This document shows, in pieces, positions 7,580 through 44,105 of a DNA stretch of 64,000 nt; position 1 is the first letter of the stretch; each line of letters opens with the position of its first letter. Under the pieces are notes generated by a model. That model was not told where the DNA came from and searched no databases. It saw only the letters and a program-made list of their open reading frames with translations. The position numbers were made by a program, and so were the translations under genes. Source of the stretch: Minisyncoccota bacterium (GTDB lineage: Bacteria > Patescibacteriota > Minisyncoccia > Phycocordibacterales > JABAAK01); contig OY282360.1 of assembly GCA_958295675.1 (NCBI GenBank), positions 52,133 through 116,132 of the forward strand. Reading direction: 5' to 3'.

Positions 7580-8920
7580 CTATATTTTCAGCATCCACAA
7601 AGAAAGATCAGTTTTGTTCACAAAAAAGAAGAATGCTCCGTCCTCGCTTATTCTCGGATTCACAACATCAAATGTTCTGTTATTTGATAGCCGTTGAATG
7701 TCGCTTTGATTGGGTGCCATAAGAAGTTTTTTCTCGCCGGTAACCGCATTGATCAGTATTATTGAATCGTTCAGTGTAATATCCCCCTGGTACCACGAAT
7801 CAGGAAAATGTGTTTCGTATCCGGATCGTGTTCTCGCCGGAACAGTGTTCGGAACAGCGCAAACGAATATTCCGTTAAAGCCGTCACATTTTTCCGGCAG
7901 AGTCATCGGCATCTTCACCACCTTTTCCCTTGATTGCTCAGTGATAACAGTGCTTCCGACCAATTCTCGTTTATTGGCTCGATACAAAACAAAATAACCG
8001 GACGATGTATCAACAAATGCCGAACCGCCGGACGGCACATTGACTAATTTATTTATCGGTATCTCATCCCTGGGATCAAGAAGGTACACATGACCTTTTG
8101 TGAGGTCGCTTATTGGCGTGGCGAGGGTGATGTACTCATTTCTTCCCCATTGCGGCAGCCAGTTAGTGAAATCTGATTCCCATATTACTTTTGTCTCTTC
8201 AGGGTTGGCAACATTAATCACCATACCGACAGTTTTATCATTAAACGACCTGACAAAGAAAAGATGGTTTGTATTGTTTGTTGCCACGCGGATATTGTTC
8301 TCAAACATTTGAATATTGTCAGATTCGGATGGCGTAAAAGAAACAAATGCTGATTTAATAACTGTTTCATCTTCCGGGTTCTCGTATAGCATCAGTGTTT
8401 TTCCGTTTGAAAATATATGGCTCTCCCGCACCCTGACAAACTCGCCCGGAGAAACGAAATTAAGTGAGTATGGGAATGTTTGAATACGATACCTATCACC
8501 TCTTCCGCCTTCAACAACTCGCACAATCCACCGTCCGTCAGCATTCTTATCAATGCGGTATCCGGCGGTCGGTCCGGCAAACAATCGAACTAATCTCGGC
8601 GCGCTTTCCGGTTCATTTTCCACTCTTTCTTCTTCGTCAGGAATAAAAAACACACGATCATCTCGCGGACCTTGATCATCAATATCGGTCACAGTATTAT
8701 CAGAAGGAAATTGCTGTTCGGGCAGCACTGTTATATTGTCAGCACCGAGCTGTCTTTCCGCTGTTGTTACAGCATCTCCGTTGCTCCGCTCAGTGGTACT
8801 TATATTCGGTTCGTTGTTGAAAATAAGAAAAAAAAGCAGAACAAGAGCAATAACTGACAGTAAAAAAATAATAGCAATCGTGATTTTTTTCCCTGTTAAT
8901 TTCATGCATGCAGTATACAA
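7580..8920 (-). CDS. Secreted/membrane-anchored hypothetical protein (last gene of the T4SS-like operon)
   Basis: 446 aa; N-terminal signal anchor (KKITIAIIFLLSVIALVLLFFLIF); likely start at the MKLTGKK codon (8905); no assignable domain. Confidence 0.6.
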   Translation of the reverse strand: MYTACMKLTGKKITIAIIFLLSVIALVLLFFLIFNNEPNISTTERSNGDAVTTAERQLGADNITVLPEQQFPSDNTVTDIDDQGPRDDRVFFIPDEEERVENEPESAPRLVRLFAGPTAGYRIDKNADGRWIVRVVEGGRGDRYRIQTFPYSLNFVSPGEFVRVRESHIFSNGKTLMLYENPEDETVIKSAFVSFTPSESDNIQMFENNIRVATNNTNHLFFVRSFNDKTVGMVINVANPEETKVIWESDFTNWLPQWGRNEYITLATPISDLTKGHVYLLDPRDEIPINKLVNVPSGGSAFVDTSSGYFVLYRANKRELVGSTVITEQSREKVVKMPMTLPEKCDGFNGIFVCAVPNTVPARTRSGYETHFPDSWYQGDITLNDSIILINAVTGEKKLLMAPNQSDIQRLSNNRTFDVVNPRISEDGAFFFFVNKTDLSLWMLKI

Positions 8921-8932
8921 TAACTATTATAC

Positions 8933-9550
8933 TTAATTACACCACCAGATATGCCAACACCCATCGTCGTCCGGCGGCTCTGCGACATCGTCACCCTTAT
9001 CACCTTTCTGGGTTTGTAAACTGGTTTGTGAGAGTCCAGAAAGGAGTTTTGAATCTAATAGCCTTGGGTTTATAAATTGTAAAATAAGATAGGAAAGCAA
9101 GAGCAAAACAATAGCGATAACAACACCAGTCAGCTTTGTTCGCATATCAAGCACCTTGCCCACATTGCCGCTCAATTTTCCGTAAATCATGCCGGTGCCA
9201 TGTACCGCAAGCATAATAACCGCGATTGTGCCGGCAAATGTGATTAGTATTTTGAGTAGTCCGTTGATTATATCACGCAACGTATCCCCATCCTTCTCAA
9301 CCGCGATTGTCTTCGTTCCGTTTGGTACTAAACCAAAAATATCTGTGACCAGTTTTAATTTTTTAAAACTTTCTTCCCCTCCTGGTAGTGGTATAGCTCT
9401 TATGTTTTCCGTTTCGAGATCTGCTGCTGCTTTTTTAGCATCTATTTCTTCTTCCTCTGCGATAACCGGATGAAACAGAAAGGCGAGAGTAAAAATGCTA
9501 TAAAACAACAGCAAATGTATAGTGTGCTTTTTGATTCTTCCTATTTTCAT
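8933..9550 (-). CDS. Candidate VirB2/TrbC-like pilin (signal peptide + two hydrophobic helices)
   Basis: Signal peptide MKIGRIKKHTIHLLLFYSIFTLAFLFHPVIA, acidic stretch, then two TM helices; placement inside T4SS-like operon; assignment by architecture only. Confidence 0.4.
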   Translation of the reverse strand: MKIGRIKKHTIHLLLFYSIFTLAFLFHPVIAEEEEIDAKKAAADLETENIRAIPLPGGEESFKKLKLVTDIFGLVPNGTKTIAVEKDGDTLRDIINGLLKILITFAGTIAVIMLAVHGTGMIYGKLSGNVGKVLDMRTKLTGVVIAIVLLLLSYLILQFINPRLLDSKLLSGLSQTSLQTQKGDKGDDVAEPPDDDGCWHIWWCN

Positions 9551-10508
9551 TTTCTGCCTGTATTCGCAGGGGTATAGTAACATCCTCCTGCCCATCCGCG
9601 GAAATATCAATTTTTCTACCTTCTTTGAGATGGTTTTGGTTGTTGTTCACAAACCACTTATATTGTATCGCATTTTTTTCAAAATCACCCTTACTGAAAT
9701 AAAACGGGTACACAGAGAAAGTTGCCGGTTTATCGTCGGATAAAGTAACATTTTTTGAGGCAGCGGCATTATCTGAAAGACCATGTAGGAGCGTTGAAGG
9801 ATAAACCAAAACCCTCGGTTCTGTTATAGGGACAAACAACACTCTTTCAAGCAACACATCGTTCCTGTTTATCAGCGTTGCTTCAACTCGCACAAAGACG
9901 GATTCACCAACATGTCGTGCACCCTTCCCGTACACCACACTACTGACCCCCGGTCCGCGGTCTTCAAGAAATTCAGATTTAACTTCCCAGCGAAACGAGA
10001 AATCGTCTTCTGTATATGTTGTGCCGTTTTGATCAATAAAATGTATTTTTGCGGAAATCTTTATCGGGGTTTCCGGGCTGACAAGACGGTGACCCCTATA
10101 CTGCGGTGTGGTCACCGCATCACCCTCCCACAGCAAATCAAAAACAATCGGTCTGACCCATTTTGTAACCTGCAAGGACCGCCTTTGGTCAAATGCGTTA
10201 AAATAAACAATATTCGCGACAATGTGTTTTGGGGAACTGTCAGTCGGCATGTCCAGCTGCAGTTTGTTTGCATATTGTTCCTGCTCATCGCCGTTGATGT
10301 ACCACCGAACCGATCGTATATTTGCCACCGAAGAACCGCCGGATCTGAGAGATGCTGTCACAAAACTGCCGGGAGATGGGTACTCTTCATCCAAAGAAAT
10401 GCTGTATGCGCCATGCTCTCCCTGCTGCGCGAGTGAAACTGTCGCTCCGACAAAAAACAGGAAAAGGAGGGTAATATAGGTAACGCAGGTGATATTTTTT
10501 ACATGCAT
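9498..10508 (-). CDS. Secreted hypothetical protein
   Basis: 336 aa with N-terminal signal peptide (…FFVGATVSLAQQ); part of co-directional operon. Confidence 0.55.
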   Translation of the reverse strand: MHVKNITCVTYITLLFLFFVGATVSLAQQGEHGAYSISLDEEYPSPGSFVTASLRSGGSSVANIRSVRWYINGDEQEQYANKLQLDMPTDSSPKHIVANIVYFNAFDQRRSLQVTKWVRPIVFDLLWEGDAVTTPQYRGHRLVSPETPIKISAKIHFIDQNGTTYTEDDFSFRWEVKSEFLEDRGPGVSSVVYGKGARHVGESVFVRVEATLINRNDVLLERVLFVPITEPRVLVYPSTLLHGLSDNAAASKNVTLSDDKPATFSVYPFYFSKGDFEKNAIQYKWFVNNNQNHLKEGRKIDISADGQEDVTIPLRIQAENENRKNQKAHYTFAVVL

Positions 10509-10573
10509 ACACAGTAGTATACATCACTACAGGGAAGTTACTTGTTTCTTCGTGAATACGGCGATCCTCAACG

Positions 10574-11083
10574 CTAATTTTTCAGCAACATCTTCGATAT
10601 TTCCCGTACCCGCAGAAACCACACAAAAAATGTCCAAAATGTAAAGCCGCCGACGAACGGCAATGATTCCACGAAAAAAACAAGAAGTCCGATAATACAA
10701 TCAAGCAGTGTGTAACTGCCTTTTGGTGTGGCGAGTACAATACTGAGAAATATACACAGCACGATGAGAGAAATGACAAAATGCAAGGTATACACACCAA
10801 GAGATGCACTTATAATAACCTCACCGGCTCGCTCTATATGCTCACCAACTTGCTCTATACTCTCAATCTTAAAATTAAAAAGCCAGTTCAGAGCATTGTT
10901 CACAACCTCGCCAAGCTTGCTCACAAGCTTGCCTACACCCTCAACAATGATACCTCCAGCAGCACCGATTGTTGCAGGCACTGCCGCCACAACCTGAAGA
11001 TTTAAAAAAACAACACCTATTGAATCAGCAATTGCAGCAATGCCGGTAAAAAAGAGCAGCGACATGGAAAGAGGTTTCTTCAT
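10574..11083 (-). CDS. Polytopic small membrane protein, translationally coupled to VirB4
   Basis: 169 aa, ~4 TM segments; start overlaps VirB4 stop by 4 nt (ATGA). Confidence 0.55.
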   Translation of the reverse strand: MKKPLSMSLLFFTGIAAIADSIGVVFLNLQVVAAVPATIGAAGGIIVEGVGKLVSKLGEVVNNALNWLFNFKIESIEQVGEHIERAGEVIISASLGVYTLHFVISLIVLCIFLSIVLATPKGSYTLLDCIIGLLVFFVESLPFVGGFTFWTFFVWFLRVREISKMLLKN

Positions 11084-12948
11084 ACCGTTTCCTGTTCATG
11101 GACAACAGGCGAGTCAGAGGTTTGGCTTTCAGGCGCACCTCCAATTTCTTCTTTCTTTGCCGCGGACTGTTGCGCCAACACCTGTGACGGATCGGAGGTG
11201 ATTATTTTATCTTCCGTCAGCGATGCGATTATTTTTATAGCAACCCTTTTAAGTCCGGCAATAAAAAGACCCTCGCCGAGACCTGCCTCTAAAAGCAGAT
11301 ATTTTTCATTATCAGTCAGGTTAAAAATCTCCTGTATTAAATCTATAGAAGTCGCCGATTGGCGCAGAAGCAGCACAAGTGATGCATTGTTCAATATTGG
11401 TTTCCCATATTTTGACCGAAGAAAGTCACTCACATCCTGTGTAATAGTACCGACACCGAGATAGTACTTTCTGCCCCGCTTCACAAGACCGAACAAAAAT
11501 GCCGCGGTATCATCCGATTGCATCATAATCCACGCTTCATCAACAACAAGCAGTCGTTTCTTCAGATTTTTTCGGACATTATTCCATATAAATCGGGTAA
11601 TAATATACATCGCCGCGGTTTTCAATTCGTCTTCCATATCACGAATTGAGAAGACGACAAACTGCTTGTCCATATCAACATTGGTCGGCTGGTTGATAAA
11701 ACCGGCCCACGAGCCGCTGGTATACCTGTCCAATCGCTCCGCAAGTTCTTCTCCGCCGTCAATGCCGGCAAGCACAAGCGCAAAATCAGACAAGAGAGGC
11801 GGCTCCATATTGCCGAACTCGCCGGACGGAGTGATGTCTTTCAACGCGTATGTTTCTCTGATGGCGCGGTCAACAATTGATTCTTCTTCCTGAGTTAAGC
11901 TGCCGAGCAGAACCCGGAAAAGACCTATAAGATTGATAATCGCACTCCGCAGTACATCGGCGGGGTTCTCATCCTCACCGACAGACGGCAAATCAAACGG
12001 ATTGATATGGTGGTGTGAATTAAGTGAGACATTAAAATACCTGCCTCCGGTTGCCTGCGCAAGCCGTTCAAACTCTTTTTCCGGATCTATAATAATAACA
12101 TTAGTGCCCACCATGAGTGATCGCAGCACTTCAAGTTTCATCGCGTATGATTTTCCCGCTCCAGATGTGGCGAATGTGACGGAGTTGTAGTTCGGCAGTG
12201 AGAAACGGTCAAACAGAATGAGAGATGCATTGTGTTCGTTAATGCCGTACAAGATACCTTTCTCAGACGATAAATCAAACGATACAAACGGGAACAAGCT
12301 CGCTAATGGTTCCGAATTTAATTTTGTGTGTATGGCGAGCAAATCAGTCCCGAAAGGACTGGTACTCCGGAATCCTTGTTCCTGCTGAAAGACGGTCGGC
12401 TTGACGAAAATAAGCCGCCCCTCAAGAATGGAGCGGACATCTTTCTCCACCTCATCAATTTCCTCAAGGTTTTCACCATAAATAGTGATATAAACACCAA
12501 CCTCAAACAGGCGTTCTGTCGCTTGCTGTATATTTGACCGCAAGGTCTCAAGGTCCTGATGAGCGGTATCTAGCTTCGGGTCACGCACCATTCCTTTCCG
12601 TTCCCGCTCAATAATCTGGCTTTCAACCTGCGCAACCTTTCTTCTGAATTTTCTCAGCACATCCTTTGATTCCATAGGGTGTATGTAAATAGCGATATCA
12701 AACTCCTTATTCATATTGATAATCGGAGAAAACCAGCCCTCATTGAGAAAACGCGGGTATGACACGATAGCGAAAGAGCGAACCACCTTATTGCCGAGAG
12801 AGATATTTTTTGGCGTAACCTGTATCGCTGCCGGAGCGATAACATCACGCAATCCGATGCTTGCCTGATCAAAAGATTCATGCGGAATGAAATGATCAAG
12901 GTCATTTTCTTCTTCCCTTCCTTTTTTTAAATTACTCAATAGACCCAT
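11080..12948 (-). CDS. VirB4/TraE/ConE-type type IV secretion ATPase, C-terminal 622 aa segment
   Basis: Walker A TSGAGKSYAMK, Walker B RLLVVDEAW; continuous in frame with upstream ORF across a single TAA. Confidence 0.85.
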   Translation of the reverse strand: MGLLSNLKKGREEENDLDHFIPHESFDQASIGLRDVIAPAAIQVTPKNISLGNKVVRSFAIVSYPRFLNEGWFSPIINMNKEFDIAIYIHPMESKDVLRKFRRKVAQVESQIIERERKGMVRDPKLDTAHQDLETLRSNIQQATERLFEVGVYITIYGENLEEIDEVEKDVRSILEGRLIFVKPTVFQQEQGFRSTSPFGTDLLAIHTKLNSEPLASLFPFVSFDLSSEKGILYGINEHNASLILFDRFSLPNYNSVTFATSGAGKSYAMKLEVLRSLMVGTNVIIIDPEKEFERLAQATGGRYFNVSLNSHHHINPFDLPSVGEDENPADVLRSAIINLIGLFRVLLGSLTQEEESIVDRAIRETYALKDITPSGEFGNMEPPLLSDFALVLAGIDGGEELAERLDRYTSGSWAGFINQPTNVDMDKQFVVFSIRDMEDELKTAAMYIITRFIWNNVRKNLKKRLLVVDEAWIMMQSDDTAAFLFGLVKRGRKYYLGVGTITQDVSDFLRSKYGKPILNNASLVLLLRQSATSIDLIQEIFNLTDNEKYLLLEAGLGEGLFIAGLKRVAIKIIASLTEDKIITSDPSQVLAQQSAAKKEEIGGAPESQTSDSPVVHEQETV

Positions 12949-37504: not shown

Positions 37505-38473
37505 CTATTCTTTCAAATGTTTTTCAACAATTGAAACAACTTGATCAACACTAAGTTGTGAATCAACACCCTGCGGACTACCTCCGATAGTCGGCGATCC
37601 TCCCCACCCCGGCTCTAATTCATTGAGTTCCATAAGTGCTGCTTTAATATCTGCAAACTTCTTTTCAAAAGTGCAGACAGTGAACTTCTTGTATGGATCT
37701 TTTCCGTGCTGTTTGAAGGAGGGATTCAACGCAACAACAACCGGAGCGAGAGAATATCCGACAGTTGTTCCGGCTCGGTGTGTACTCTCCACAAATGCAA
37801 TTCTGCCGTCCGCTCTGGTTTCATAAGTAATATCACCATTTTCCAGCGCCTTTACCATATCCAATTTTTCTTCATGCACCTGCTTGCGGTATATTTCTGA
37901 TTCATTGCCGGTTTTTAACCACTCTTTCATTGATGCAACACGATCGGCAAGCGGTACCTTGAAGTCTGATATTTCCGCAGCAATCGCAGCAAGCACTTCT
38001 TCATTCTGATTATTCCATAATGTTTCTTGTGTGGGCAGCGGTTTCGGTCCGAGGTACCCTCCTTGTGCGAATTTATCAGAATCAGCAATGATTTTTACTC
38101 GTTCCATCGCTGCGTCATCAAGGACTCCGTCTTCAGATCGAATTGTAAATACAGCCATTGCGCCAACCGAATCAAGGTCAGCACGAACAGTGGCGAATAA
38201 GGCATCTTGAGGTGGGGTTTCAAATATAACAGCTTCCTCAATGGCGGCTGTGTCAGAATCCCCACCTGTGTGTTGGGGATCAATATTCACAACACAACGC
38301 TCCGCAAGTTCCGGTACAGTGACCTCAATACCGTATACATTATTACTTTCAAACACTTGATCATTATGCTCCCTTGCAGCCGGTATTGGTCTGGGGTCAA
38401 GTACTGCAAACGAATAAAAAGATGGTTTTTCCCGTTGCTCTTTATTTCCAAAATTATCAAATTTATTTTCCAT
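37505..38473 (-). CDS. Hypothetical protein (no recognisable domain; GC higher than the adjacent cassette)
   Basis: ~323 aa from MENKFDNF; acidic; ends at the left edge of the AT-rich cassette. Confidence 0.5.
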   Translation of the reverse strand: MENKFDNFGNKEQREKPSFYSFAVLDPRPIPAAREHNDQVFESNNVYGIEVTVPELAERCVVNIDPQHTGGDSDTAAIEEAVIFETPPQDALFATVRADLDSVGAMAVFTIRSEDGVLDDAAMERVKIIADSDKFAQGGYLGPKPLPTQETLWNNQNEEVLAAIAAEISDFKVPLADRVASMKEWLKTGNESEIYRKQVHEEKLDMVKALENGDITYETRADGRIAFVESTHRAGTTVGYSLAPVVVALNPSFKQHGKDPYKKFTVCTFEKKFADIKAALMELNELEPGWGGSPTIGGSPQGVDSQLSVDQVVSIVEKHLKE

Positions 38474-38599
38474 ATATACATCATAATAACACGCAAAACT
38501 CAAGACAGAATATATAAAAAACAATAAATGGATTTCTATAGATATCCAGGGTGCCGTTCAGGCGATTATGCTCGAACTATAGCACGAAAGTTGAAAGAG

Positions 38600-38760
38600 T
38601 ATTTTGAGAACAACACGCGCGCTCAGTAAGCACGAGAACTAGTCGCTCCGCCCTCCCGTGCCAATCACCGCTGTTATTTTCTTTTTCCATTCAATCCGTC
38701 CACTCCGTTTTTCCCACTCTGTCCTTTTGCTCCGCAAAAGTTCGAATCTGGAAATGCTTT
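38600..38760. repeat. Left copy of a ~130-nt imperfect inverted repeat flanking the AT-rich cassette
   Basis: CGCGCTCAGTAAGCACGAGAACTAGTCGCTCCGC…CTCCCGTGCCAATCACCGCTGTTATTTTCTTTTTCC is the reverse complement (roughly 80-85% by eye) of 43895-44025. Confidence 0.6.
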
Positions 38761-38776
38761 ATTATCTGTAGTATAA

Positions 38777-39691
38777 TTAGGCATCATCAAGATTATATTG
38801 TTTTAGTAATTCAACTCTCCAGTTAATAACTAGATTATTAAAAATCTCTACGCAATATTTTGTTAAAACCGTTTCTTCTAATAGAAATAAATTTGTATCA
38901 TAACACCTTTGTGTACGCGAATACTTATAATCTAATATACATTCCTCTTCCTCTCTTCTGATGTCTCCAATTTCAAATATAGATAATACACTAATAAAAT
39001 AATCTGTTAGAACAGTTTCTCCAAGAGGTTCAGACATGCTTAATCCAAGGTTTGGATTTCCAAATGGAGCTTGTGTTGGCATTATCTTATTCTTGTTCGT
39101 TTTTTGAATAAAATAATACCTTTCTACCCTAAAATTTATAAAAGAAAAAACTGTTTTTAATATCTGTTCATCAGTCATACTTTTTTTAAAAAAACTCTTT
39201 TTTGCCGCCATTTCTGATTGTACAAGAGTATTTAATTGTTCATTGAGTGTTTTAAATACTGATTCCTTAACAGACTTTTTCTCTTTCCGCTTTTTACACA
39301 AATTTTCTATGGTCATGTCATTCATAAAAACTTGCAACGCAAGGCTTTCAAAATAAATTAACAATCTTTGTTCTCTATCAGAGTATTTAAATTTAGTATT
39401 TTTAGGAGCTCGCATATCTTTTAGCATCTTATTGTGAAATTCCTTTATCTTTGCAGCGGAATTGCTTAATGAAATTGCGTGAGCACGTGAAATATGCATG
39501 AGAATAATTGCAAAATCATTTAAAGAAATACTTCCTTCCTCTTTTGCAGAATTCATTGTTTTTTTGAGAAAGTGGAAATTCTTTCTTGTCCCTTCAAGAT
39601 CAAACTTCACTCTAATTAATTTTTTTCGCCAATCTTTGAGCAAGTCAGCGCATTTTAACTCTGTTTTGTTTATGTTATCTCTTGTCTTCAT
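38777..39691 (-). CDS. Hypothetical protein of AT-rich cassette (possible abortive-infection/defense accessory)
   Basis: 304 aa, K-rich helical, no motif recognised; markedly lower GC than the chromosome backbone. Confidence 0.55.
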   Translation of the reverse strand: MKTRDNINKTELKCADLLKDWRKKLIRVKFDLEGTRKNFHFLKKTMNSAKEEGSISLNDFAIILMHISRAHAISLSNSAAKIKEFHNKMLKDMRAPKNTKFKYSDREQRLLIYFESLALQVFMNDMTIENLCKKRKEKKSVKESVFKTLNEQLNTLVQSEMAAKKSFFKKSMTDEQILKTVFSFINFRVERYYFIQKTNKNKIMPTQAPFGNPNLGLSMSEPLGETVLTDYFISVLSIFEIGDIRREEEECILDYKYSRTQRCYDTNLFLLEETVLTKYCVEIFNNLVINWRVELLKQYNLDDA

Positions 39692-39785
39692 AACTGAAAG
39701 GAAATTGCAGATACATAAAATATACCATATCTATTCTTTCGCACTGGGTCAGCGCCTACGATACCTCTAAGAAAAAGAAATTATA

Positions 39786-41258
39786 TCATGATGCTACAGA
39801 AGCTGACACTTTCTTTCTTGCGTCAATCAAAACAATATTTTCATCTTTTTCTAGACCAATCTCTTCTAGAATTTTAATAACTCTTTCATATTCACTTTTC
39901 TCAAAAAATAATATAACTGTAAAACCATTAAATGTTCTGTTTGCTCTTTTGTATATTTCTACCTGTTTTTGTAAATTTTGCTTTAATTTTTTATTTTTTG
40001 CAAGTTTAAATTCAACCAATGTCTTGTCTCTCTTGCTCGAGATAGTAAAATCAACTGAACCTCGACCATTATTCACCTCACGGTTTACATCAAAATCAGA
40101 ATTGTAACATGTCAAATGGAATAATAGTTGAAGATCTCTTTCATTGCTGATACATCCATCTTCACGATAGAAAAGCTTATATCCGTCCATGTTTTCTATA
40201 AAATCTTTCAGAATAAGAATCCTTTTCTTTGCCTCATGATAACTTCTCACTGGCTTATAAAAACCAAGGTTTTGTAATCGCCCAATCAGAGATTGTGCAT
40301 TTTCTACAAAGAAGGTATCAGAATAATCAACCTTTTGTTGACTGATATTTATTGCTTGGTCACCATTTTCTTCCTTATATTTTATGTAGTAATCAAAGAG
40401 CTCCGGAAACCTAATGAAAGTTGATCGTATCGCTGTATTCCTTTCTTCCTTTTTCATCTCCCTATTTCCTCTTTCGTACTGTTTTATACGATTTTTATAG
40501 TAATTATTTATTTGATGGCGTAGTTGAGCATTATCAATAGTACTTGGTATTTCTGTAAAATCTTCAATCAGACCTTTTCTATTAATCCATACATCATCTT
40601 TGGTCAATATATCTACTGGCGTTAAAATGACATAGTCATTTTCAAATTTTGGCAAGATAAAATTTTTTTCTGCCCACACTTCCGTATCATAGTTAAAATA
40701 AGATTTCTTGACCCTGAAAGTTCTCGTTAGTCTTTTGTCAATGTATCGTTTTGTAAATTTTTGGGTGTATTCAAGTAAAAAATGCTTGATTAAATTGGTA
40801 ACAAAATCACTTATATTATCCCTACCAACGCCATCCTTAACCAAGCACAATTTTTCTAAATGCGCCCCTCTCGTTATATTTTCTTCACCAAAATTTTGAA
40901 AAACAGTATTTAAATTTCCGTGCAGAGCTTCTGCAAATTTCATTCCGAGTGCGTGTCCTTTGTTTCCGATCACAGAATAACCAAGCCAGTTTTGCTGAAC
41001 CTCACTGAACATATACCATGACTTCATTTTGCCAACATCTACTTCTTCAGAAGATTTGTCTTTCACGAAAATTAAATATTTGATTATTTCATTGTGTAAT
41101 TTTTGATATTCTTCCTTTTCGCTATTAAAAAGAAGGAAAGGATCAATAAAAAGAGGTAAATCAGTAATAAGGGATATATTAAATGCTCCATATTCTTTGA
41201 GATCGTCTTTTTTTACATTAAAATAGTCTGAAAAGTGGGGTTTCACATGCTTGTGCAT
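39786..41258 (-). CDS. Hypothetical protein with C-terminal PD-(D/E)xK-like nuclease motif
   Basis: 490 aa; C-terminal …GRGSVDFTISSKRDKTLVEFKLAKN fits D…(D/E)xK spacing of restriction-endonuclease-like fold; N-terminal 380 aa unassigned. Confidence 0.5.
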   Translation of the reverse strand: MHKHVKPHFSDYFNVKKDDLKEYGAFNISLITDLPLFIDPFLLFNSEKEEYQKLHNEIIKYLIFVKDKSSEEVDVGKMKSWYMFSEVQQNWLGYSVIGNKGHALGMKFAEALHGNLNTVFQNFGEENITRGAHLEKLCLVKDGVGRDNISDFVTNLIKHFLLEYTQKFTKRYIDKRLTRTFRVKKSYFNYDTEVWAEKNFILPKFENDYVILTPVDILTKDDVWINRKGLIEDFTEIPSTIDNAQLRHQINNYYKNRIKQYERGNREMKKEERNTAIRSTFIRFPELFDYYIKYKEENGDQAINISQQKVDYSDTFFVENAQSLIGRLQNLGFYKPVRSYHEAKKRILILKDFIENMDGYKLFYREDGCISNERDLQLLFHLTCYNSDFDVNREVNNGRGSVDFTISSKRDKTLVEFKLAKNKKLKQNLQKQVEIYKRANRTFNGFTVILFFEKSEYERVIKILEEIGLEKDENIVLIDARKKVSASVAS

Positions 41259-41444: not shown

Positions 41445-42536
41445 TTATTTTCCTGATTTAGTGCGGTTATCTTTTTTGCATAACATCTGGCAATTTTTTG
41501 CAATTGTTTTACCACCTTCATGCCAAGGGGTAATATGGTCAGCCTCCATCTCTTGAATCTCAAACCGTTTTTCGCATTTTGCGCAGATACCCTTTTGCCT
41601 CTCATACGCTTCTCGCTTCATGTTCTCGGTAAAGGTACGAATAGAAAGATGTTTTTCCTCTCTCGTTAAGACATAGGGGTAAATGCCAGATTTTTTAGTC
41701 ACATCTTCGTCTTGCATTAATTCAGTAATCTCAGTCTCTAGTTTTTTAGCATTCAGGTTTTGAGTATTGAATTGGTTATACAGTTCACCCCAATGTACAC
41801 TCGCCATCTCATTGCGGTAATTGGTAAAAGTCTTTCGCACCCAAGCAACCACCCTTTGAAAGTATTCCCATAATTCATCAGCATTTTTATCGTGCTGATG
41901 TTTTGCCATGTACTCTTCTATTTCTCCGTTATTGATCCAGGAAAGTGCAGTCTCTAGATAGTCCTGTCTTATCGGCGAACCCTTCAGAAGTGATCCATCA
42001 TCATTCGCCAAAAGGTATGCTGCACAACCTGTTTTGCTAAATTTTAGCTTTGCGTCAGAGAGCCACGGTCCGGTGTAGACCGCATTTCGTATTTCCTGGT
42101 CAGTTAATTCTGCACCGGCAATATTAATAATCCTAAACCAATCAAGCCGCTCTTTATCTGTGCCTTCGCAGAAGTAAATCATTAGTTCATAATTTAAAAT
42201 CTGGTCTTGTTCCTCGCCAGTTAAATTATGAAAATAGTGATTATTCAATGAAAAGTCACCGTTTATATATTGTCCTATACTTATAGTTCGTTGTTGACCG
42301 TCCAGCATTTCATAATTTCCACCTTCTTTTACCATCCAGTACATAACATTGAGTGGAAAACCATTTTTAATTGTTTCAATTACGGCATCACGCTGTTTGC
42401 CGGTATAGACAAACTCTCTTTGGTATTTAGGACGAATGTCTAATCTACCACCATAGGCGGTAACACCTTCCTCATCACTGTCTTTGTATTTCTCAACCAC
42501 ATCACGAACCAAAATCTTGTGTAATTCAATTTTCAT
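41445..42536 (-). CDS. DUF262 (ParB-like, DGQQR motif) + C-terminal HNH nuclease protein
   Basis: MLDGQQRTISIGQY (DGQQR signature) in N-terminal half; C-terminal CAKCEKRF…ADHITPWHEGGKT…NCQMLCKKDN = HNH (Cys4 + His-Asn-His); start overlaps MTase stop. Confidence 0.75.
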   Translation of the reverse strand: MKIELHKILVRDVVEKYKDSDEEGVTAYGGRLDIRPKYQREFVYTGKQRDAVIETIKNGFPLNVMYWMVKEGGNYEMLDGQQRTISIGQYINGDFSLNNHYFHNLTGEEQDQILNYELMIYFCEGTDKERLDWFRIINIAGAELTDQEIRNAVYTGPWLSDAKLKFSKTGCAAYLLANDDGSLLKGSPIRQDYLETALSWINNGEIEEYMAKHQHDKNADELWEYFQRVVAWVRKTFTNYRNEMASVHWGELYNQFNTQNLNAKKLETEITELMQDEDVTKKSGIYPYVLTREEKHLSIRTFTENMKREAYERQKGICAKCEKRFEIQEMEADHITPWHEGGKTIAKNCQMLCKKDNRTKSGK

Positions 42537-42537
42537 G

Positions 42538-43566
42538 TTATTTTTTTGCTTTTTTATTTCTTATTAATATTCTGAAGTATGTATACTTTCCATCTATCGA
42601 TAAATCCTTATCATCATCACCTTTTCTAAACTTTACTATCTCAAACTGGTCAGGATTATATTTGTCAAGGAATGTGATTGGGACACCTATAACACCATCA
42701 TAATTATAAGGTATATCGGTATATTTATCTACATTAATTGCATTATAATTATCATATTTTGGATATTCTTCCGGTGTGTATTTTTTATAAAGTACGATAT
42801 CGTTTTTGTGTTTTGTAACTTCAAGATTTGTAAACCAACATGAAGTTGCTACACGAGCAATCTTCTTGCCATTTTCATCAATATGGTGAAATTTTTCCCA
42901 ATCGTCTGGTACAACAAAAAACATTCCTACATTAAAATTAGTATAACCAGTTCGAATTTTATTTTCCTTGAAAAATTTAAAAATCTCTTTATATGTAATT
43001 GCATTTGTATTACCAATAATCAAGAATTCTTTATCAAGTTCTGTTAATTGTGTAACATACTCACGAAATAATGAAAATGGAGGGTTAGTAACCACCACAT
43101 CCGCTTGTTTGAGTAAATTGACACATTCTTCACTACGAAAATCACCATCACCTTCAAGAGGTTTTGCAACATTAGCATCTTGTCTCAGTAATTGCTCAAC
43201 GTCTTCCAAATTGACTGCACCATCATTATTAAGATCTTTAACTTCATTAATTTCAATTCTAAATGGCTCCTTTCCTTCAGGTTTTAATCCCTCTATTTCA
43301 ACGAGTGGCAACTGCCCACCAGCAATTGGTGACCTTATATAACTTGTGGCAATAAGTTTTTTAAGTTTCAGTGCGTTAAAATTAGCGGCAAAATACTTAA
43401 AAAAGTTACTTTCATAAGGATCATCGCAGTTACAGTACACAACCTTATCATGAAATTGTTCTTTGTAATGTCTTAACTCTTTCTCAATATCAACAAGTTG
43501 AGTATAAAACTCATCTTTTTTTGCTTTAGATGCCTGATGAAGAGCTGTATTTGAAGATTTAGCCAT
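42538..43566 (-). CDS. DNA methyltransferase (amino-methyltransferase, NPPF motif IV; N6A or N4C)
   Basis: DEFYTQ near N-terminus and VVVTNPPFS catalytic motif; 342 aa; translationally coupled to the DUF262-HNH gene. Confidence 0.8.
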   Translation of the reverse strand: MAKSSNTALHQASKAKKDEFYTQLVDIEKELRHYKEQFHDKVVYCNCDDPYESNFFKYFAANFNALKLKKLIATSYIRSPIAGGQLPLVEIEGLKPEGKEPFRIEINEVKDLNNDGAVNLEDVEQLLRQDANVAKPLEGDGDFRSEECVNLLKQADVVVTNPPFSLFREYVTQLTELDKEFLIIGNTNAITYKEIFKFFKENKIRTGYTNFNVGMFFVVPDDWEKFHHIDENGKKIARVATSCWFTNLEVTKHKNDIVLYKKYTPEEYPKYDNYNAINVDKYTDIPYNYDGVIGVPITFLDKYNPDQFEIVKFRKGDDDKDLSIDGKYTYFRILIRNKKAKK

Positions 43567-43894
43567 AACAATTTCTTATACTTAAAGTATGCCATCTAAT
43601 TTTTATGATAATCCAACAGAAGAAATTCCAGCAAAAACAAATTATCCACCCATTTTTCTTATAACGACAGTGTGTATTCTCATAATAGGAAATCCGTCCG
43701 TGAAAACCCTATCGGGAGGTTCACTGGCGGATTACTAGTTTTCCTCTCCTTCGCCAACGCCGAACATTTTCTTTTGCAGTTTTGATACGTGCCGTTAAGG
43801 CATAGAAAGGTTCTAGTGATACATATTGATGACCCACCTGCTCTCCGTACCGAATCCGCGGCGAGCACGCGGAGTTGGGGCGGTGGAAGAATAG

Positions 43895-44025
43895 AAAAAG
43901 AAAATAACGGCGGTGATTGGCACGGGAGCGGAGCGAACGGAGGGGTCTTGTCGCAGGCATGTCCCCGCAACGATGCGGAGCGACTAGTTTTCATGTTTAC
44001 TGAGCGCGAATGTGTGTCATCTTGT
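43895..44025. repeat. Right copy of the imperfect inverted repeat (contains a 46-nt insertion relative to the left copy)
   Basis: GAAAAAGAAAATAACGGCGGTGATTGGCACGGGAG…CGGAGCGACTAGTT…TACTGAGCGCG matches the reverse complement of 38600-38700. Confidence 0.6.
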
Positions 44026-44034
44026 ATCCTTGGG

Positions 44035-44105
44035 TGCGGGCGGGGAGAATCGAACTCCCGTTTTCCGCTTGGAAGGCGGATGTTCTACCACTAAACTACG
44101 CCCGC
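44035..44105 (-). tRNA. tRNA-Gly (anticodon TCC)
   Basis: Cloverleaf on minus strand: acceptor GCGGGCG/CGCCCGC, anticodon stem TCCGC/GCGGA, loop CTTCCAA, T arm GGGAG-TTCGATT-CTCCC; 71 nt. Confidence 0.85.

Follow-up and report, generated by a model that had tools for sequence, protein, structure and literature searches.

A DUF8370/DUF8371 protein with a predicted C-terminal PD-(D/E)xK nuclease as a candidate single-polypeptide immunity protein on a restriction-linked cassette of a Minisyncoccota bacterium

We analysed a stretch of 64,000 nucleotides (nt) from a Minisyncoccota bacterium (GenBank assembly GCA_958295675.1, contig OY282360.1, positions 52,133 to 116,132 of the forward strand), hereafter called the window. 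At 39786..41258 on the minus strand, it carries a gene for a protein of 490 amino acids (aa) that belongs to the DUF8370/DUF8371 (DUF8370/1) family. We consider it probable that this 490-aa protein is a sensor-effector immunity protein made of a single polypeptide and encoded on a horizontally acquired, restriction-linked cassette. Both functions appear to be united in the same chain. The N-terminal module (residues 1-370; 40149..41258, minus strand) defines the family and is a putative sensor or regulatory unit, possibly an enzymatic one, while a RecB/Cas4-like PD-(D/E)xK domain (residues 373-490; 39789..40142, minus strand) forms the C-terminus.

A preliminary description of the window had proposed two candidate defence proteins, the 490-aa protein and a 304-aa protein (38777..39691, minus strand), in a low-GC cassette downstream of a restriction-modification (R-M)-like pair. 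The open reading frame (ORF) listing contains both genes at these positions and on this strand, with an intergenic spacing of 94 nt, and their location in the cassette was confirmed. As a defence candidate, the 490-aa protein is supported by effector swapping among its relatives, a match to the PDC-M36A profile, and restriction, defence or mobile genes as neighbours. The 304-aa protein, which has no homolog and no PADLOC match, is not.

Domain architecture of the 490-aa protein

The C-terminus of the 490-aa protein shows the signature of RecB/Cas4-type PD-(D/E)xK nucleases, E...D...ExK...QxxxY. In an alignment of 42 close homologs, E373, E394, D403, E416-F-K418, Q432 and Y436 (the last two as Q432xxxY436) are invariant. 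The motif GSVDFTIS...LVEFKLAKN, from which a PD-(D/E)xK-like domain had been suspected earlier, covers residues 400-421, and the invariance of E373, E394, D403, E416, K418, Q432 and Y436 bears out that call. Among more diverse relatives, the canonical nuclease motif is present in about 46 of 90. Judged from its sequence, the region of residues 373-490 is predicted to be a catalytically intact RecB/Cas4-like PD-(D/E)xK nuclease.

The AlphaFold 2 (AF2) model of the 490-aa protein has a predicted local distance difference test (pLDDT) value of 78.8 and a predicted template modelling (pTM) score of 0.80. The nuclease domain adopts the core fold of restriction endonucleases (REases), alpha-beta-beta-beta-alpha-beta, and its best fold matches are the type II REases BstYI, BglII and BamHI. 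A Foldseek search of the PDB with the model of the 490-aa protein returned nothing significant, and the protein has no significant sequence match to any solved nuclease; a weak Pfam match is to DpnII-MboI. For residues 1-370, neither a sequence match nor a fold match was found.

The N-terminal module shows very strong conservation and has an invariant acidic/His/Asn pocket. Its polar residues D33, D39, H55, E86, N99, H133, E135, D147, S150 and D151 are retained in about 85 of the 90 diverse relatives, whatever their C-terminus, and the module is 50-60% identical across phyla.

Effector exchange among relatives

Relatives that align only up to about residue 333-399 run into a different domain beyond this point, which is TIR (TIR_2) in P0162, P0164, P0195 and P0212 and a CHAT protease in P0185. 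Other relatives are full-length and have a domain added: CHAT in P0127, caspase in P0163, caspase plus EAD7 in P0145, and SIR2 in P0150. Counted over the 90 representatives, TIR occurs nine times, CHAT three times, caspase and EAD7 twice each, and SIR2, SEFIR and PNP_UDP_1 once each. All ten long-form relatives tested match PDC-M36A through the N-terminal ~250 residues, as does the protein from the window. The usual hallmark of conflict systems, seen in Thoeris, Lamassu, Avs and the EAD-linked systems, is a single conserved module that is joined to varying NADase, protease or nuclease domains. Hence, the swapping of effectors among its relatives strengthens the defence reading of the 490-aa protein.

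Database matches and distribution of the family

An identical full-length protein (P0001, 100% identity) is publicly available on a contig of 724,510 bp. For this entry, membership in both PF28123 (DUF8370) and PF28130 (DUF8371) is precomputed (Pfam PF28123.1 and PF28130.1). The two Pfam entries are names without a function, and the window protein carries both domains. In our literature search, no paper on DUF8370/DUF8371 or PDC-M36 was found. The earlier characterisation as unassigned and novel goes too far, since Pfam already lists the family as DUF8370/DUF8371 and PADLOC includes its N-terminal module as a candidate. The PDC-M36A profile of PADLOC matches the 490-aa protein with 1.8e-21, residues 5-262 being aligned to profile positions 4-255 of 457.

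The relatives form more than 6,307 clusters at 90% identity. At 50% identity, there are 2,149 clusters, 280 of which have E<=1e-30. They are found in several lineages of the candidate phyla radiation (CPR), including Magasanikbacteria, Gracilibacteria, Berkelbacteria, Woykebacteria and Peregrinibacteria, and further in Omnitrophota, Thermodesulfovibrionales, Bdellovibrionales and Gemmatimonadaceae. Plasmids of Sinorhizobium, Rhizobium, Roseomonas and Paenarthrobacter encode homologs with 45-49% identity, which are named "hypothetical protein" where they are annotated at all. Further homologs are on Janthinobacterium and actinobacterial plasmids.

The family also occurs in viral sequences. The 490-aa protein has a full-length match to phrog_30194 (5.6e-33), a PHROG without an assigned function, and five viral contigs with a family member were found. 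On two of them (L017, 7483-8969, and L018, 7959-9487), the family member is split into two ORFs of 259 and 215 aa, which may be a pseudogene or a frameshifted copy. One of these two contigs has a terminase-like gene and several DNA methyltransferases.

The restriction-linked cassette in the window

Upstream of the 490-aa and 304-aa genes, and on the same strand, lies a pair of a DNA methyltransferase (MTase) and a DUF262-HNH protein. The MTase (342 aa; 42538..43566, minus strand) is an EcoRI-like N6-adenine enzyme (Pfam EcoRI_methylase 1.7e-133; PADLOC MTase_II 4e-123). The REase (363 aa; 41445..42536, minus strand) consists of DUF262 (GmrSD_N, Pfam 7e-16) and HNH (9e-11), and it matches the PADLOC profile REase_II over its full length (1.3e-132). 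Only 1 nt separates the two genes. This adjacency and the significant family matches identify the pair as a type II R-M system.

The four cassette genes have a GC content of 29-39%, and of 20-37% at third codon positions (GC3), compared with 43-50% GC in the flanking housekeeping genes. Promoter and terminator scans of the window gave results no better than those for shuffled sequence.

The four-gene cassette, 5.3 kb in length, is flanked by an imperfect inverted repeat. The left arm is at 38613..38692 (plus strand) and the right arm at 43889..44013 (minus strand). The arms share one block of 34 nt with three transitions and another of 40 nt with two mismatches, which are separated in the right arm by an insert of 46 nt. 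The right arm lies directly 3' of a tRNA-Gly(tcc) gene (44033-44105), which it adjoins. Within the repeat-bounded cassette, there is no recombinase, integrase or transposase. Comparison of the arms with Rfam gave no match, they do not fold into a stable RNA, and no further copy is present in the window or in the fetched loci. Since they are richer in GC than the cassette, the arms may derive from the host, as a palindromic target, and not be the ends of an element.

Just beyond the left repeat arm, a 339-aa protein is encoded at 37505-38524 (minus strand) with a host-like GC content of 42.7%. It has no match in Pfam, NCBIfam, PADLOC or PHROGs.

The 304-aa protein

At the local base composition, the probability of an open frame of 304 codons arising by chance is about 3e-13, and the frame shows the order GC1>GC2>GC3 over the three codon positions that is seen in coding DNA. 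A chance ORF is therefore excluded. The gene matches the rest of the island in composition (GC 29.4%, GC3 24%).

The only match of the 304-aa protein among 5.8 billion proteins, even at E<=10, is to itself. No Pfam, NCBIfam, PADLOC or PHROG family rises above chance. There is no tblastn match in phages or plasmids and no sequence match in the PDB. A tblastn search of 111 loci with a homolog of the 490-aa protein gave chance matches only, and BLASTP comparison with the genes between R-M and DUF8370/1 (L020, L023) and with the small downstream genes (L006-L010) gave none. The protein is predicted to be all-helical, but its single-sequence AF2 model, with a pLDDT of 36.7, is unusable.

The preliminary description had suggested an effector-plus-sensor pair and had named the co-occurrence of the two genes across homolog neighbourhoods as a check. 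This suggestion was not upheld, since the 304-aa protein has no homologs anywhere, is absent from the 111 homolog loci, and is missing from the 77% relative; the two genes were found together in none of these neighbourhoods. We conclude that the 304-aa gene is a real orphan and an unrelated, lineage-specific passenger of the cassette that the DUF8370/1 family does not require. It is of interest only because it illustrates how lineage-specific cargo can occupy the variable 3' edge of such islands.

Genomic neighbourhood of homologs

We surveyed about 100 non-redundant loci that encode homologs of the 490-aa protein and found, in qualitative terms, an association of these homologs with known defence genes or mobile elements. 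The combination of MTase and DUF262-HNH REase upstream of a DUF8370/1 gene recurs in at least four independent contexts (the window, L020, L028 and L029). In L028 (362-1468), a DUF262-HNH REase with 73% identity to that of the window lies directly upstream with a gap of 24 nt. The linked DUF8370/1 protein of L028, however, is only 59% identical to its counterpart in the window, which suggests that the modules of the cassette are shuffled. In L029 (517-2944), an EcoRI-like MTase (57%) and a DUF262-HNH protein (58%) are directly upstream, with a T5orf172 gene before them. In the Woykebacteria locus L020 (1915-4276), the pair is more distant (MTase 47%, REase 36%), two genes without assignment stand between it and the DUF8370/1 gene, and T5orf172 again precedes.

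Other homologs are combined with other machinery. In L107 (427-5319) and L110 (254-6065), a helix-turn-helix (HTH) gene, an HSDR_N_2 nuclease, N6_Mtase and HsdS, a type I/IIB-like arrangement, are followed after 4 nt by the DUF8370/1 gene. No helicase-type HsdR is visible in these two loci, and both contigs end just past the DUF8370/1 gene. A type III R-M system (Mod and Res) lies beside another homolog. On the Paenarthrobacter plasmid pA (L105), the order is MTase, DEAD helicase, GIY-YIG, and then an overlapping DUF8370/1 gene. The same locus has, at 8587-12831, a block of three genes (hypothetical, Hsp70-family, hypothetical) that lies next to this operon and is oriented convergently to the DUF8370/1 gene; the block may represent a further defence-type module.

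About nine loci, including L006 (1207-7891), L007, L008, L009, L019, L026 and L027, share a small XRE HTH gene and a Mokosh-like superfamily 1 (SF1) helicase of 1,526 aa, followed by the DUF8370/1 gene. The helicase contains AAA_11/AAA_12 and Zn_ribbon_Top1 and matches PDC-S37, MkoA and MkoC of PADLOC. In these loci, the gap before the DUF8370/1 gene is 6 nt, and an overlapping gene for a protein of 132-164 aa without assignment comes after it. The cassette of HTH, helicase, DUF8370/1 and small protein may be a distinct multi-gene system.

The closest relative of the 490-aa protein (77% identity) lies in a different genomic site, next to a convergent Mrr gene and a Panacea toxin-antitoxin system. 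In that locus, the 304-aa gene and the R-M pair are both missing. On the S. meliloti plasmid, the DUF8370/1 gene is Tn3 cargo beside AbiEii, and serine or tyrosine recombinases are near further homologs. In L013 (1257-5103) and L020 (7492-9542), the DUF8370/1 gene adjoins a gene for a DUF2779 protein with a weak Cas4-like PD-(D/E)xK match. The two DUF2779 copies are 35% identical and come from unrelated genomes; beside one of them there is also a HerA/DUF87 ATPase, beside the other a HEPN protein.

The 113 immediate (+/-1) neighbours include seven type I S subunits and five integrases, besides Mrr, ResIII, AlwI, TIR, KAP and AAA_13. A same-strand neighbour within 40 nt is found upstream in 34 of 99 loci and downstream in 16. 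The DUF8370/1 gene therefore tends to close operons. In 11 of the 99 loci, the contig ends within 300 nt of the 3' end of the gene, which hints at a strain-variable junction on this side.

Comparison with known systems

PDC-M36 is one of 145 phage-defence candidates of PADLOC that were derived by a guilt-by-embedding approach, the surrounding systems being BREX, DISARM or type I R-M (Payne et al., bioRxiv 10.1101/2024.01.29.577857). It is a cassette of three genes, FAM_01399>>FAM_00303>>FAM_00303, for which the supplement gives family numbers only (bioRxiv 10.1101/2024.01.29.577857). The 490-aa protein has the N-terminal ~250 residues in common with it, and both are linked to restriction systems. 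Unlike members of the system, the 490-aa protein does not match the profile over its full length, and the other genes of the cassette were not seen: the neighbouring 304-aa and 339-aa proteins have no PADLOC match, and a type II MTase and REase are upstream. Because it shares no more than the N-terminal module and occurs without the remaining cassette genes, the 490-aa protein counts as a relative of PDC-M36 and not as a member. Taken together with the Pfam entries, the DUF8370/1 family is thus already indexed, and a defence role had been suspected earlier via this distant relative.

The nuclease domain resembles RecB/Cas4, PDDEXK_9, and BstYI, BglII and BamHI in its E...D...ExK...QxxxY motif and its core fold. 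It differs from RecB/Cas4 in that the Cas4 Fe-S cysteine cluster and a helicase partner are missing and that it is fused to a large unique N-terminal module. With Lamassu LmuA, the Avs/NLR-like proteins, Thoeris ThsA/ThsB and the EAD-linked systems, the family shares the principle of a conserved core with interchangeable TIR, SIR2, caspase/CHAT, nuclease and PNP effectors, and EAD7 itself is present on one caspase relative. In contrast to these proteins and systems, however, the 490-aa protein has a different, unassigned core fold and contains no STAND, SMC or other nucleoside triphosphatase (NTPase), SLOG or SAVED domain.

PrrC and RloC, which sit within type I R-M loci, are anticodon RNases under the control of an ABC ATPase. 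Like them, the 490-aa protein is an accessory nuclease in or beside R-M operons. It has no sequence or domain similarity to them, however, and its partners vary.

Proposed mechanism and alternative explanations

As a single-polypeptide immunity protein, the 490-aa protein could act in the following way. The N-terminal module would detect an infection cue, which may be a ligand, a nucleic-acid feature, or a neighbouring restriction system that fails or is inhibited. The module would then activate the C-terminal nuclease, probably via oligomerisation or release from autoinhibition. The activated nuclease would degrade DNA and block phage replication in this way, and the cell would probably be sacrificed (abortive infection).

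Several points weigh against this interpretation. We infer the label "sensor" for the N-terminal module from the architecture alone, and its invariant acidic and His residues would fit an enzyme equally well. Several of the invariant residues of the protein are in loops in which the AF2 model has a pLDDT <50 (87-102, 127-131, 141-149 and 390-408). The match to PDC-M36A is limited to profile positions 4-255 of 457, and the PDC systems are predicted candidates (bioRxiv 10.1101/2024.01.29.577857). The survey of homolog loci had no matched random control, so the enrichment of defence genes is qualitative. No partner gene is universal among the surveyed loci, and many homologs are located among ordinary housekeeping or metabolic genes.

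The 490-aa protein might instead guard the adjacent restriction system in the manner of PrrC or RloC, with a nuclease that fires only when a phage anti-restriction factor disables the R-M or helicase machinery. We regard this as rather unlikely. In its favour, the DUF8370/1 gene often ends R-M or helicase operons, overlapping the preceding gene or following it at a distance of 4-24 nt; the window, L028, L029 and L020 share the triad of MTase, DUF262-HNH and DUF8370/1; and PDC-M36 itself was discovered inside BREX, DISARM or type I R-M systems. However, the machines upstream are unrelated to each other (type I/IIB-like, type II, type III, SF1 helicase, GIY-YIG), and it is unlikely that one strictly conserved sensor pocket could respond to every one of them. 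A restriction neighbour is also missing beside many homologs, among them the 77% relative, which has only the convergent Mrr. That the 490-aa protein is itself an REase, either a modification-dependent type IV enzyme or a second type II enzyme with an N-terminal module for DNA recognition, is unlikely as well. Such a function would agree with the best fold matches (BstYI, BglII, BamHI), the weak DpnII-MboI match and the MTases adjoining the gene, and a stand-alone occurrence would be compatible with type IV. On the other hand, paralogous members replace the nuclease by TIR, SIR2, caspase, CHAT or PNP, which do not cut DNA, and an N-terminal identity of 50-60% across phyla together with an invariant acidic/His pocket is atypical of the fast-evolving domains that confer DNA specificity.

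A two-gene system of the 490-aa and 304-aa proteins, be it a nuclease effector with its sensor or a toxin with its immunity protein or antitoxin, is quite improbable in our assessment. The two genes are on the same strand, 94 nt apart, equally low in GC and within the same inverted-repeat-bounded cassette. Yet no homolog of the 304-aa protein was found among 5.8 billion proteins (E<=10) or in the 111 homolog loci, it has no PADLOC match, and the +1 position is held elsewhere by unrelated or convergent genes. A conserved toxin-antitoxin pair with the 304-aa gene was rejected for want of co-occurrence. Very improbable, finally, is a nuclease for housekeeping or for the maintenance of mobile elements, that is, for recombination, repair or plasmid addiction. 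Its RecB/Cas4-like motif with QxxxY would be in line with such a task, as would the homologs that are carried by Tn3 or by conjugative plasmids or that adjoin integrases. The patchy distribution, the low-GC island and a location that varies even between close relatives speak against it, and TIR, caspase and SIR2 variants are typical of conflict systems and not of repair. A housekeeping repair nuclease was rejected on account of the patchy distribution and the conflict-type effectors. We therefore retain the single-polypeptide immunity protein as the preferred explanation.

Implications

Beyond the protein of the window, we put forward a wider proposal, which is tentative. The module of ~370 residues may represent an immune sensor or enzyme fold that is universally conserved and has escaped recognition so far. 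Its invariant D/H/E/N/S pocket would bind or process a specific infection signal and could drive at least seven effector types. The family would then be a new and widespread single-gene defence family that is especially common in CPR/Patescibacteria, and its restriction-linked versions might serve as a back-up when restriction has been overcome.

The invariant pocket is a concrete target for mutagenesis and ligand discovery, and close homologs in cultured hosts and on plasmids (Sinorhizobium meliloti pSmeSM11a, Paenarthrobacter pA and a Roseomonas plasmid) offer experimental entry points. If the proposal is true, it would add a new sensor domain to prokaryotic immunity, present in more than 6,000 clusters from many phyla, including small-genome CPR bacteria with few known defences. 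It would also mean that a sensor without structural precedent is wired to effectors that are common to eukaryotic innate immunity (TIR, caspase, SIR2).

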